This document shows, piece by piece, positions 52,224-55,466 of a stretch of DNA of 64,000 bases (within the stretch, counting starts at the first letter, position 1; every line of letters starts with the position of its first letter). The position numbers and the translations under genes are program-made. Source of the stretch: an uncultured bacterium (lineage in GTDB: Bacteria; Verrucomicrobiota; Kiritimatiellia; Kiritimatiellales; Pontiellaceae); contig CBDVCB010000002.1 in the NCBI GenBank assembly GCA_965372395.1, positions 975 through 64,974 of the forward strand, in the 5' to 3' direction. The notes beneath the pieces were generated by a model, which worked only from the letters and a program-made list of their open reading frames with translations, made no database searches and had not been told where the DNA came from.

Positions 52224-52241
52224 GATGGCGGAGAGAGAGGG
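52224..52241. repeat. att direct repeat, distal copy of the tRNA-Ser(TGA) 3' end
   Basis: GATGGCGGAGAGAGAGGG, identical to 55377-55394. Confidence 0.9.
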
Positions 52242-52308
52242 TCGCGACCGACAGCCTGATTTTATTGGATGGAGCAATCCCCTACCCCGCTGGTTGCAGT
52301 TTTTTACG

Positions 52309-52524
52309 CTACTTTCGCCGTTCTTGAAGAGCGGCTTTCGCGTTGGCATAGGCCTCTCTTGAGTCTGCATGCTGCAACTCGCCTTTCCCTTCTCCCTCAA
52401 AAAAGTCGACCACGTGCTTGAGGAAGTAGGTGGACATCTTCGACCAGTGTATCTCATGTGGGATTGGGCCTTTCGCTATGGCCTCATTAATGGCTTGCTC
52501 AAGTTCCGTATCTTGCATTTTCAT
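52309..52524 (-). CDS. Small hypothetical protein (71 aa) inside the element
   Basis: Purine-rich SD region (GAGGTAAAGGAGAGAAGC) before ATG 52524; predicted helical; no family recognised. Confidence 0.55.
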   Translation of the reverse strand: MKMQDTELEQAINEAIAKGPIPHEIHWSKMSTYFLKHVVDFFEGEGKGELQHADSREAYANAKAALQERRK

Positions 52525-52795
52525 GCTTCTCTCCTTTACCTCTCGTTTTGTTGCTCACAAATATCAAAGGACTGACCCCTTGGACGCCGTCGCGATCCCG
52601 ACCATCTTAGTCCAGAAAAAACGTAGAGCAGATCGCCCGCAGCGATGCCGAGCTCGAATATCGGCGCAGCCCCGCTTATCCGGCACCCCGAAAGAAATAA
52701 GGGCGGCCATTGCGGCCACCCATGTGTAAGGGTGTGCAAGGTTTTTCCCGCACCAAGCACCGTGCCGCTTGAAGACCGCCAGATGGGCGGGCAAT

Positions 52796-52822
52796 AAAAA
52801 AGCCCGCACATGGCGGGCTTTT
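52796..52822 (-). terminator. Bidirectional intrinsic terminator downstream of the metallopeptidase gene
   Basis: AAAAGCCCGC-ACATG-GCGGGCTTTT. Confidence 0.75.
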
Positions 52823-52843
52823 GAAATACTGCAGAGCTGGGGA

Positions 52844-53488
52844 TTACTCAATCGGCCATAGGCCGTGAATATCCAACCGCTTTGAAATAACACCCTGGTT
52901 CACATCAAACCGATACCCAATCTTCCGGCAAAGTTCATTGCGAGTGTGCTCGTTATCCACCGGATTCGTTAAATCGTGCCCCTTTATCGTGCGATCATAC
53001 AGCTCGTGGTATATTTTCTTTAGATCATCCTCAGGGACCATCAAACGACCCGCAAACTCCCACGCCTGCCATTCCGCCCGACCGGAACTCAGCAGATGAT
53101 CCAGTGCCATTTCCTCGTACTGCTCAACCGTGGTTAAAGTCTCTATGTATGGCTCAACGCTATCTTTGTGTAGAATTAGGTGCCCCAACTCATGCGCCAT
53201 GGACATCCGCAACCGGCGGTTGTTTTTCTTCTCTCGACTGTCTAGCGAATCATATTCTTCCTTATCCATATAGAATCCGGTGAAGTCGCACATTAGAATC
53301 GCATCACATTTGTGTTTTTTCAATAGGTCGGGAACCGGGACAATATCTAGGCTGTAGACAATCTCAACAATTTCAACGATATCGACGGGGGGCCGGAACA
53401 ACGACGGATCCCCATCATCAAAATCTCTGACTGATTTTACCCAGTCAGAGATTTCATCGCAAGTCATGTAGGGAATATTAACCTTCAT
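52844..53488 (-). CDS. ImmA/IrrE family zinc metallopeptidase
   Basis: PPVDIVEI, RRLRMSMAHELGHLILH (HExxH), EWQAWEFAGRLMVP. Confidence 0.88.
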   Translation of the reverse strand: MKVNIPYMTCDEISDWVKSVRDFDDGDPSLFRPPVDIVEIVEIVYSLDIVPVPDLLKKHKCDAILMCDFTGFYMDKEEYDSLDSREKKNNRRLRMSMAHELGHLILHKDSVEPYIETLTTVEQYEEMALDHLLSSGRAEWQAWEFAGRLMVPEDDLKKIYHELYDRTIKGHDLTNPVDNEHTRNELCRKIGYRFDVNQGVISKRLDIHGLWPIE

Positions 53489-53864
53489 CTGGATCCGGTA
53501 TGTTCAGCTCCCGTATACCCTTCATCATTTCACCTACCTGATCACCGGTCATTGTTTGCTCGTTGCGTACATTCCGGAAAAACAAAGGCATCTTTTTCAT
53601 AACCGCCTCGTCCGTTAGAATGTCCGTAGGAATCTCACCGCGCGAAACCGCCGCAAAATCCATAAAGCCAACAAGAGCTTCTTCTTTTAATTTGAAATAC
53701 TCCGCAACCCTCTTTAATACCTCTTCCTTTGGTGCGGCATTGATACCGCGCTCCACCTTACTCCAGTTGCTTGGATCAAACCCCATATCCGAGCAGAACG
53801 TGCGGAGTGTTTTTTTTAACCCGATCCTCAGCCCCTTAACTAGGTCGCCGAATTGAGTAGCCAT
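53478..53864 (-). CDS. XRE-family helix-turn-helix regulator
   Basis: FGDLVKGLRIGLKKTLRTFCSDMGFDPSNWSKVERG; overlaps the peptidase start by 11 bp. Confidence 0.85.
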   Translation of the reverse strand: MATQFGDLVKGLRIGLKKTLRTFCSDMGFDPSNWSKVERGINAAPKEEVLKRVAEYFKLKEEALVGFMDFAAVSRGEIPTDILTDEAVMKKMPLFFRNVRNEQTMTGDQVGEMMKGIRELNIPDPDEG

Positions 53865-53915
53865 TGTATGCCTCCATTTCTCTCCGTTTAGTGTTCACAG
53901 CATCAGTCGCTATTA

Positions 53916-53962
53916 GTGGTATAAATAAAACCACACTATAAAAGAAGCTTTTTCCAGTTCAA
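53916..53962 (-). promoter_or_regulatory. Putative sigma70 promoter with operator for the HTH-peptidase operon
   Basis: Minus strand TTGAAC (53962-53957), 16-nt spacer, TATAGT (53940-53935); inverted repeat GTGGT-N9-ACCAC (53916-53934) just downstream. Confidence 0.5.
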
Positions 53963-54051
53963 AGTTATCGCCCAGATTACACGCATTTCCCATGCCGACC
54001 ATCCTGCTCTCTCCTAAAACAGCCTCCTCGACCCAGCATCCACCGCCCCCC

Positions 54052-55182
54052 TCAACCACCCGGCACAACAGTGAAATAAGCCACCGCATCCTTTTTCATC
54101 GCCTTGCCCCGATAATGCCCATAAAGCATGTTCACCCCGCGATGCGTTAGCAGCGTGGCCGTGCGGCTGGCATCATTATGCAGGGCGATGTGATACGAAC
54201 AGAACGAATCGCGCGCGCCATTGTGCGGATACTCGATCCCAGCGCGGAGGTAGATCTTTTCCCGCCAATCTCGAAACGTGCTGTCCGCGAACGGTCGCCA
54301 AGAAGCCTTTATTTTGCGCAACGGCTCAAGCCACTCCCATAGATTATCCTCATGCCCCTCCACATAGAACCGCTTGAGGGTCTTATGCGTTGCGCCAGGC
54401 ATCGTGATCCCCCGCTCCTCAAAATTAAAGTCGCCCAGCTTCAAGCGAGGGATCTGGCTCGACCGCAACCCCGCAAAGAACGCCAGCGCCATGAACGGCG
54501 CCACCCTTGGATTCGACTTCATGCACTCCGCAAAGAAAGCCCGGACATCCTCCAGCGGCATAACATTCGGGTCGGTCTCGGCAACCTTGATCGAGTCCAT
54601 GGCATCCATGGGGGAGTGAAGGCAAAACCCGCTCTTGATGCACCAAGCAAAAAACCGGGCATAATGTTCCCGATAGTTCTCCTTTGTTCGCGGAGCAAGG
54701 GGAAGGGCCGCAAAGAACTTGGCAATGTCCGTTGCCGATATGCTACCGATATCAACACCCTCGCCAACACAGGCCGCCAGCCGCCCAAGTTCCGTTTCCA
54801 TATGGGCGCGATACTCCGGACTCAATCGCCGCACCTGCATCATATACAGATAATCCCGCGTCGCATCCTTCAAGCTTCGTTCCGACCGCTGCGTATGATG
54901 ATCTAGATAAAACCGTACCGCCTCACGAGGATCAACATTCGACGGCAGCATCTCCCGTAGCTCTGCAACCATCCGGGCATCCGCCGAACTCATCACCAAG
55001 CCCGACGTACCCTCCGTCGACGCGATACGCTGCAAAGCCACCAGCTCCCCGTCACGCTCGCTCTTTGTCTGGAAGAAAACCCGCTTCGCCGATTTCCCTA
55101 CGCGAGGAATAGAGATCCCCCACCGCTTCGGTCGACCATCCTTTCGTTCAAACCCCCGAATCTTCGCTGTAGCTGGCATCAT
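54052..55182 (-). CDS. Tyrosine recombinase/integrase
   Basis: LAFFAGLRSSQI (R), HKT (K), HNGARDSFCSYH (R), LLTH, LYGHYR (Y); SD GGAGGTG; adjacent to the tRNA. Confidence 0.92.
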   Translation of the reverse strand: MMPATAKIRGFERKDGRPKRWGISIPRVGKSAKRVFFQTKSERDGELVALQRIASTEGTSGLVMSSADARMVAELREMLPSNVDPREAVRFYLDHHTQRSERSLKDATRDYLYMMQVRRLSPEYRAHMETELGRLAACVGEGVDIGSISATDIAKFFAALPLAPRTKENYREHYARFFAWCIKSGFCLHSPMDAMDSIKVAETDPNVMPLEDVRAFFAECMKSNPRVAPFMALAFFAGLRSSQIPRLKLGDFNFEERGITMPGATHKTLKRFYVEGHEDNLWEWLEPLRKIKASWRPFADSTFRDWREKIYLRAGIEYPHNGARDSFCSYHIALHNDASRTATLLTHRGVNMLYGHYRGKAMKKDAVAYFTVVPGG

Positions 55183-55342
55183 TCACCTCCATATTTTTGG
55201 TGTAGAAACAGCTTTTATTTAGCACCCGGTGCAAAATGGTGCAATCAAAAACCCCAGCGGCGCACAGATGCGCCCAAAAGCGCACACATTAAGCAAGGAA
55301 GGCAAACCAAGAGAAGTAAGCATATCGGCTAATTATACCAAT

Positions 55343-55368
55343 AAAAAAGGGCTATCCGAAGATAGCCC
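55343..55368 (-). terminator. Intrinsic terminator directly after tRNA-Ser(TGA)
   Basis: Minus strand GGGCTATC-TTCG-GATAGCCC-TTTTTT (UUCG tetraloop). Confidence 0.85.
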
Positions 55369-55378
55369 AAAAAGAAGA

Positions 55379-55466
55379 TGGCGGAGAGAGAGGGATTCGA
55401 ACCCCCGGAAGCTTGCGCCTCTCCGGTTTTCAAGACCGGCACCTTAAACCACTCAGACATCTCTCC
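55379..55466 (-). tRNA. tRNA-Ser (anticodon TGA)
   Basis: GGAGAGA acceptor stem, anticodon arm CCGGT-CTTGAAA-ACCGG, long variable arm, GGTTCGAATCC, encoded CCA. Confidence 0.96.

Follow-up and report, generated by a model that had tools for sequence, protein, structure and literature searches.

A 3-kb island that encodes an integrase and only three other proteins, inserted at the 3' end of a tRNA gene, raises the question of whether it is a system in its own right or the residue of something larger. We addressed this question for an island of ~3.15 kb at the tRNA-Ser(TGA) gene of an uncultured member of the Pontiellaceae (Verrucomicrobiota); the window, that is, the whole stretch of DNA that was analyzed, has a length of 64 kb and belongs to a metagenome-assembled genome (206 contigs; 2.9-Mb assembly). 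An earlier interpretation (the sequence-only reading) had offered two alternatives, that is, a stripped remnant of a prophage or integrative and conjugative element (ICE), or a stand-alone, stress-inducible mini-element, and had ranked the island as the best candidate for an undescribed system in the window. The first alternative is supported: the closest relatives of the integrase (51–70% identity) are all found in siphovirus-like phage contigs, those contigs with tail genes share the tRNA-Ser core, and the island probably descends, in mosaic and much reduced form, from a temperate siphovirus with the tRNA-Ser(TGA) 3' end as its integration site. The second alternative was not borne out, and the ranking was given up because relatives of the integrase occur in much larger phages with the same core.

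The island is delimited by an exact direct repeat of 18 bp, GATGGCGGAGAGAGAGGG, that occurs exactly twice in the window (52224–52241 and 55377–55394; 3153 bp apart, start to start), with no third copy in the window when as many as two mismatches are allowed. ARAGORN locates a tRNA-Ser(TGA) gene at 55379–55466 on the minus strand, and the tRNA is also found by Rfam (53.2 bits); therefore, the repeat is composed of 16 nt of the tRNA 3' end and 2 additional nt, in agreement with the sequence-only reading. The ends of the element and its target have this core in common, as do the attachment (att) sites of tyrosine recombinases. Four open reading frames (ORFs) are located between the two copies, all on the minus strand; these encode the integrase, an XRE-type helix-turn-helix (HTH) protein, an M78 peptidase, and a protein of 71 aa. 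The features of the ends and of the integration gene are the following.

52224–52241, no strand: distal att core, which repeats part of the tRNA-Ser(TGA) 3' end (16 nt + 2 nt) and matches 55377–55394 exactly (18/18)
55377–55394, no strand: proximal att core, within the intact tRNA gene; exact repeat, with the same core ~200 bp upstream of the integrase gene (int) in contigs L059–L063
55379–55466, minus strand: tRNA-Ser(TGA), the integration target (ARAGORN, Rfam)
54052–55182, minus strand: phage-type tyrosine integrase, 376 aa, full length (phrog_1, 20-member family alignment, PDB profile match)
55183–55376, minus strand: int-proximal att arm (P' arm), with a post-tRNA terminator hairpin (55368–55349) and a conserved GCACC-repeat, promoter-like block upstream of int

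The integrase matches phrog_1 (2e-18) and, below the cut-off of 27.1 bits, Pfam Phage_integrase (19.7 bits); its PDB profile match is the phage integrase 5vfz. The sequence-only reading stated that the catalytic residues are present, and an alignment of 20 family members bears this out: R240, K267, R324, H347, and Y357 as well as all of the other invariant columns are kept, and Arg I falls on the GLR motif when the protein is aligned with solved integrases. The histidine of the HxxR motif is shifted by one residue (PHNGAR) throughout the family, including its phage members. With these residues and the C-terminal catalytic fold, the protein is a tyrosine site-specific recombinase.

The protein database holds a graded series of relatives; the window integrase is 66–70% identical to P0007–P0012. 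Three of these (P0007, P0010, and P0011; 68–70% identity) are encoded by longer phage contigs whose tail genes match Phage_attach, tail_U, tape-measure, Phage-tail_3, and GP38, in the order head-tail joining, tail tube, tape measure, Phage-tail_3, GP38-like, a short gap, and int; after int these contigs have reverse-strand small genes, either of the ribbon-helix-helix (RHH) type or unassigned, followed by a run of small early genes. P0009 (70% identity) has a reverse-strand HTH gene in the position after int, and a more distant relative (51% identity) is encoded by a 33.8-kb phage contig that starts at int and bears phage early genes.

In all three tail-gene contigs, the tRNA-Ser core, GGCGGAGAGAGAGGG, precedes int by ~200 bp and follows the last tail gene, and none of these contigs contains a complete tRNA; the core is therefore in the form of a phage attachment site (attP). 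The P' arm of the window is conserved block by block with the attP regions of three phage contigs (L059, L060, and L061), and its hairpin would follow the tRNA once the phage had integrated. In BLASTN comparisons of the window with the related phages, homology is found only at 54073–55408 and ends at the integrase stop codon. In addition, a genome from the same genus bin (G003) encodes the N-terminus of a 69%-identical integrase at its own tRNA-Ser(TGA), where the contig ends. Because the core and the arm match those of the phage attP and the G003 integrase is located at the same tRNA, we regard the 18-bp repeat as a genuine att site and assign the integrase to a temperate siphovirus lineage that targets tRNA-Ser(TGA); sequence comparison thus identifies the integrase, the int-proximal arm, and the core as the integration module of a phage lineage in which complete members have the arrangement tail genes, attP, int.

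These matches bear on the most trivial explanation, that is, a chance match or an assembly artefact with no element at all. The genome is metagenome-assembled and in 206 contigs, as an artefact would have it, but two copies of the repeat were obtained in 0 of 100 shuffles, and the repeat is both the exact tRNA 3' end and the exact attP core of the related phages. A repeat of 18 bp is also shorter than the k-mer lengths that assemblers usually use, which counts against an artefact. We consider this explanation very improbable.

If the island descends from such a phage, integrase-mediated recombination between the phage attP and the attB in the tRNA gene would have duplicated the core; a later deletion would have removed roughly 30–40 kb between int and the far end, leaving int and the former accessory (moron) region that adjoined the distal att site. 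That region would comprise two unrelated modules, the XRE-HTH/M78 cassette and a rare gene for a 71-aa protein that has an upstream region of its own. The base composition of the island is also a mosaic (G+C content of 0.565 for int, 0.47 for the HTH and peptidase genes, 0.564 for the spacer that follows them, and 0.50 for the 71-aa ORF; 0.559 for the genome).

Little else is recognizable between the att sites. As the sequence-only reading had noted, no replication, packaging, conjugation, or defence-effector family is matched in the element in searches of Pfam, PHROGs, NCBIfam, and PADLOC, apart from the matches of the peptidase to the capP and RmrA models. Because structural, lysis, and replication families are unmatched among the four ORFs, the island is not an intact prophage. 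No relaxase or conjugation family that would indicate an ICE or an integrative and mobilizable element (IME) is matched in the element, in which an unrecognized origin of transfer (oriT) could still be present; it does not qualify as a satellite, with primase, Rep, AlpA, terminase small subunit, and excisionase all unmatched. When the genome is scanned with the integrase, only distant relatives are found (≤45% identity over the best segments), and no other genes of the related phages were found in the 2.9-Mb assembly.

Several observations weigh against descent by deletion. The phage relatives carry neither the HTH-peptidase pair nor the 71-aa ORF, all three genes being absent from all of the related phage contigs; a full-length ancestor with this cargo was not seen. 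Decay of the mobility module is not visible because the integrase ORF is intact and the two cores are identical. No empty site or close strain was found with which to date an insertion or a deletion, and three islets of 3.2–4 kb among ~40 loci could mean that a small form is preferred.

In a different explanation, the island is an active minimal hitcher or satellite that helper siphoviruses mobilize, with an integrase and att sites that are matched to these phages, a stress switch, and a noncoding segment that serves as a packaging or replication site. The intact integrase and cores fit this explanation, as do the full conservation of the P' arm with the phage attP regions, the recurrence of islets of 3.2–4 kb with this integrase family, and a noncoding segment that folds better than its shuffles (z = −2.8); minimalist satellites such as PICMI (PMC10803314) are also a known kind. 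However, neither an excisionase, an AlpA-type regulator, a primase, a Rep protein, nor a terminase small subunit is matched, genes of a helper-type phage were not found in the assembly, and the noncoding segment lacks similarity to the phage contigs and to the other loci compared. Also, searches of 5.8 billion protein clusters and of JGI metagenome contigs found no near-identical copy of the element, and the broken primase gene in a related islet (in genome G007) points to decay. On balance, we think an active hitcher improbable. As a phage remnant, too, the islet may still be excisable because the integrase and both cores are intact.

The related islets place this one in a range of forms. In G007 (contig C2; L023:7753–11291), an exact 18-bp repeat of the 3' end of a tRNA-Ala(GGC), with its copies 3521 bp apart, bounds an islet that encodes a 45%-identical integrase and a 550-aa primase ORF (PriCT_2, the only Pfam match); we take the C-terminal tail of this ORF to resemble the end of a transposase. 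Distant relatives of the integrase are found in a repeat-bounded element of ~3.95 kb at a tRNA-Val (L085:5921–9891) and in one of ~11.2 kb at a tRNA-Ser that has the same TCCCTCTCTCTCCGCCAT core as the window (L093:7165–18368); for most of the other integrase relatives, no repeat was found within 10 kb. Thus, the family spans full phages to 3-kb islets, and at least one small islet contains debris. At one further locus (L075:69–9850), a complete tRNA-Val is located 9.7 kb upstream of a partial copy of at least 22 bp that directly precedes an integrase gene; possibly, several elements are arrayed in tandem at this tRNA.

What, then, does the island carry? Its HTH and peptidase genes form a compact cassette with the following features.

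53935–53962, minus strand: promoter-like site of the HTH-peptidase operon, TTGAAC-16 nt-TATAGT
53916–53934, no strand: putative operator, a perfect palindrome (GTGGT-N9-ACCAC) that adjoins the −10 box of the promoter on its downstream side, conserved upstream of the HTH gene
53478–53864, minus strand: XRE-type HTH protein, 128 aa, with a conserved C-terminal extension (HTH_31; 2.7e-7, 31.2 bits)
52844–53488, minus strand: M78 (ImmA/IrrE-type) zinc metallopeptidase, 214 aa, with HELGH and without a GAF domain (Pfam Peptidase_M78, PADLOC capP, PDB 7t5t, AlphaFold2 model)
~52797–52826, minus strand: intrinsic terminator of the operon; just behind the peptidase stop codon, a GCCCGC/GCGGGC hairpin leads into a run of six U (sequence reading, fold)

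The two genes overlap by 11 nt, and the promoter-like site, the palindrome, and the hairpin agree with the statement of the sequence-only reading that the pair has its own promoter/operator and terminator. The peptidase is a member of the ImmA/IrrE (M78) family (Pfam Peptidase_M78, 2.2e-7, 31.2 bits with a cut-off of 22), and HELGH is invariant in the alignment of its relatives (A4). In sequence it is closest to CapP (PADLOC capP, 6e-11; PDB CapP 7t5t, 7.9e-10), although the CapP profile match spans residues 57–153 only; the PADLOC RmrA models also match. The AlphaFold2 model (predicted local distance difference test score, pLDDT, of 85) has PprI/IrrE and CapP as its best fold matches (template modeling score ~0.5); its residues 153–207 are helices only and not a GAF domain, so the protein falls outside the CapP/IrrE subgroup. 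By analogy with ImmR/ImmA, DdrO/IrrE, and CapH/CapP, which the sequence-only reading had invoked and which is reasonable in both sequence and fold, the peptidase most likely cleaves the HTH protein in response to a stress or DNA-damage signal; the mechanism of these pairs is taken from published work (10.1101/2022.04.27.489752).

The relatives of the HTH protein (39–46% identity) are invariably paired with a peptidase, and the pair was found in 8 of 401 sampled genomes of the phylum. A GTGGT-N9-ACCAC palindrome, in one or two copies, is immediately upstream of the HTH gene in eight of the nine cassette loci from genomes, often overlapping the TTGAC −35 box, and is found nowhere else in those loci (~150 kb); the locus from a viral contig (L109) is also without it. 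Across families of the phylum the palindrome is conserved, often as two copies ~21–23 bp apart (L067, L069, L070, L071, L072, and L073). The genome encodes a second pair (contig C53:676–1726, locus L003; 38% and 45% identity) that has two such operators upstream and is preceded by an unassigned 238-aa gene and a C-terminal fragment of a restriction-modification (R-M) methylase; cross-regulation between the two pairs is possible. The 2.9-Mb assembly contains 5 operators vs 3.3 expected (1 in the island, 2 at the paralogue, and 2 inside ORFs), with no near-match elsewhere in the element, including upstream of the 71-aa ORF, and none at the neighbors of the cassettes in relatives. Because operators are found only at the cassette's own promoters in the element and in the related loci, the cassette looks autoregulated, with no visible regulon, and the HTH protein most likely binds GTGGT-N9-ACCAC at its own promoter. 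The conserved palindrome provides a ready operator consensus for this repressor family.

We considered whether the pair was the immunity switch of the ancestral phage and judged this unlikely, because the related phages have reverse-strand RHH or HTH genes in that position and lack the pair. The cassette is a self-contained, conserved two-gene unit and a module separate from the integration module. Its nearest relative (67% identity, contig L146) is ~125 bp from a partial tRNA 3' end (L146:1184–1221; T-arm, acceptor strand, and CCA) that is downstream of the peptidase relative, in the same orientation as in the window, and no complete tRNA is present on this 1.4-kb contig; therefore, the nearest relative is at the far end of another tRNA-integrated element. 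Its location beside a distal att site fits integration followed by deletion. Single-protein scans of IMG/VR with the integrase, the peptidase, and the 71-aa ORF gave no relatives; a profile scan with the peptidase gave one true relative (L109), in which the pair is beside a large serine recombinase.

In relatives, the pair is mostly located in defence islands, and the cassettes are downstream of and co-oriented with R-M genes. Among the neighbors are R-M enzymes, namely, one of the Eco57I/MmeI type and two type I systems (a TIR protein accompanies one of the two); ATPases, namely, AAA_21 together with a RloB-like protein and AAA_15/DUF3696; DUF488; and a UvrD-like helicase together with an ADP-ribosyltransferase-like protein. 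These contexts suggest an explanation that overlaps with our own, in which the cargo is the real unit of selection: the cassette would be a self-contained defence or toxin-antitoxin-like module in which the peptidase is the effector or the pair confers immunity against related phages, the vehicle would be incidental, and the islet would persist because the cassette is useful. The operator that is restricted to the cassette's own promoter, with no visible regulon, and the paralogue elsewhere in the genome (38% identity), which has an operator of this type and adjoins an R-M fragment, are in its favor, and proteins with an ImmA domain have been validated as components of RosmerTA defence systems (PMC10440598). 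However, a defence-island neighborhood is equally expected of a regulator, no defence effector is adjacent in the window, and CapP and IrrE, to which the peptidase is closest among solved proteins, act as regulators rather than effectors (10.1101/2022.04.27.489752). This explanation is unlikely, if less so than an active hitcher. We give a similarly low probability to its narrower form, in which the cassette is a stand-alone two-gene module, triggered by stress or phage, with the peptidase itself as its output in place of a regulon, and the islet was kept for carrying it; the pertinent features are the own-promoter-only operator, the missing GAF domain, and the recurrence of the pair in defence islands and at prophage ends in bacteria of the Verrucomicrobiota group.

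The probable siphovirus descendant contains a second passenger module beyond the cassette, at its distal end.

52525–52843, minus strand: structured, GC-rich noncoding spacer with several terminator-like hairpins (fold, terminator prediction)
52309–52524, minus strand: 71-aa ORF, an independent passenger that encodes a small helical protein from an orphan family of great rarity (homologue clusters, dN/dS, AlphaFold2 model)
52242–52308, minus strand: distal arm between the core and the 71-aa ORF (weak alignment to the far arms of phage attP)

The small ORF, the presence of which the sequence-only reading had noted, is judged to be a real gene because it has five homologue clusters (75–91% identity) and ratios of nonsynonymous to synonymous substitution rates (dN/dS) of 0.10–0.22. 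The family is rare (3 representative clusters at E ≤ 1e-10 among 1.84 billion). The AlphaFold2 model (pLDDT 81) is a small helical bundle without a significant fold match in PDB or BFVD, and the ORF has no family match in Pfam, PHROG, PADLOC, or NCBIfam.

In its second alternative, the sequence-only reading had the small ORF or the noncoding segment as the only output of the mini-element. This is not supported: homologues of the ORF occur without the HTH-peptidase pair and in unrelated contexts, no operator is upstream of it, and terminator hairpins and 320 nt separate it from the switch. The DNA homology of other contigs halts at the edges of the ORF (52318–52539). An 86% homologue (L032:2–349) is directly beside an ORF whose N-terminus we take to be IS110-type transposase-like; other neighbors of homologues are presumably a fatty-acid hydroxylase/sterol desaturase-like membrane protein and an OmpR-type response regulator, and in G100 the homologue is neighbored by two unassigned genes. 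The ORF is independent of the switch. A role as toxin partner of the pair was rejected because homologues occur without the pair.

The spacer of 319 nt has a minimum free energy of −130 kcal/mol and terminator-like sites at 52721–52701, 52640–52626, and 52582–52565. It contains no Rfam family at the gathering score and no coding relic (tblastx), and no homologue was found in any locus compared or elsewhere in the genome; the related phage contigs show no similarity to it, and as these are incomplete a match to a cos or pac site is still possible. The distal arm aligns weakly with the far arms of the phage attP regions, with one GCAACC where the phages have GCACC/GAACC repeats, and may be a relic of the phage P arm.

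Searches for empty sites covered both genomes and metagenomes. No empty attB was found among the genomes compared, including G027, in which the left flank is 91% identical and the neighborhood is different, and G033 and G018, in which the tRNA-Ser(TGA) contigs end within ~200 bp of the tRNA. JGI metagenome contigs contain no match to exact patterns for the host flank plus core (empty site) or for the core plus distal arm (circle junction).

The flanks of the island have features of their own. To the left, a gene at 50751–51973 (minus strand) is divided into two overlapping ORFs in different frames (339 and 200 aa); its counterpart in G027 is a single ORF of 388 aa (91% identical), which suggests that the gene is frameshifted or a pseudogene in the window, and its family is multi-copy in the genome (contigs C61, C65, and C175). 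Upstream of this gene, an intergenic sequence of 68 bp (52077–52144) that is present twice in G027 (L058:4076–4143 and 7217–7284, ~3.1 kb apart) looks like a short dispersed repeat. Beyond the tRNA and outside the element, a direct repeat of 31 nt (84% identity) is found at 55643–55673 and 55831–55861, 188 bp apart.

How does the island compare with known elements? Integrase-only cryptic elements that are flanked by a full and a partial tRNA are documented for Prochlorococcus islands (10.1101/2020.12.28.424599). As in those cryptic elements and prophage remnants, int adjoins the tRNA 3' end, a partial tRNA is at the far end, and replication and transfer genes are lacking; unlike in those, phage ancestry is directly shown by attP-bearing contigs, and the cargo is a repressor-protease cassette. 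Cis-mobilizable elements (CIMEs), IMEs, and PICMI satellites are alike in their small size, their att sites, and the outside help that transfer needs. CIMEs are without an integrase, IMEs have an oriT or relaxase, and PICMIs have regulatory and replication genes; the island differs from CIMEs in having an integrase and from IMEs and PICMIs in that neither an oriT or relaxase nor such regulatory and replication genes were found.

The cassette resembles ImmR/ImmA of ICEBs1 and phi105 in that an XRE-HTH gene is co-transcribed with an M78 peptidase gene next to int in an integrative element. In ICEBs1, immR, immA, and int form one operon that is read towards the att site and faces a divergent excision promoter, whereas the island has int as its first gene, transcribed in the direction that leads away from the tRNA. 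Excision genes of the element are under the control of the repressor in ICEBs1 and phi105 (10.1101/2022.04.27.489752); unlike there, nothing is left to control in the island, the operator is only at the pair's own promoter, and the pair is absent from the related phages. The likeness to CapH/CapP and DdrO/IrrE is in the best sequence and fold matches of the peptidase and in the location of the pair's relatives in defence islands. CapP and IrrE have a C-terminal GAF domain in common, which was suggested perhaps to underlie peptidase activity that is stimulated by single-stranded DNA (10.1101/2022.04.27.489752); in contrast, the C-terminal part of the 214-aa peptidase is all-helical, and only the core aligns. 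Also, CapH/CapP is upstream of the immune operon that it represses, whereas in relatives R-M genes precede the pair, and in the window no defence operon adjoins it. RosmerTA (RmrT/RmrA; PMC10440598) is similar in that an ImmA-type peptidase domain and an HTH are near a small protein of unknown family; however, its antitoxin, which has an ImmA domain and in many cases also an HTH at its N-terminus, shares an operon with the toxin, whereas here the HTH and the peptidase are separate genes and the sole small ORF is behind terminators and occurs elsewhere without the pair.

The island is most likely a fairly ordinary genomic islet, a phage integration gene with two unrelated passenger modules, and resembles the end of a prophage that has become grounded. 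It is a clean example of a temperate phage integration module that outlives its phage together with att-proximal passenger genes, and as a whole it adds little. A by-product is a family of tRNA- and tmRNA-targeting phage integrases, with their phages, from a poorly studied bacterial group. The part most worth experiment is the cassette: compact, and with a well-defined operator but no visible regulon, it lends itself to experiments on what orphan ImmA/IrrE-type pairs do.

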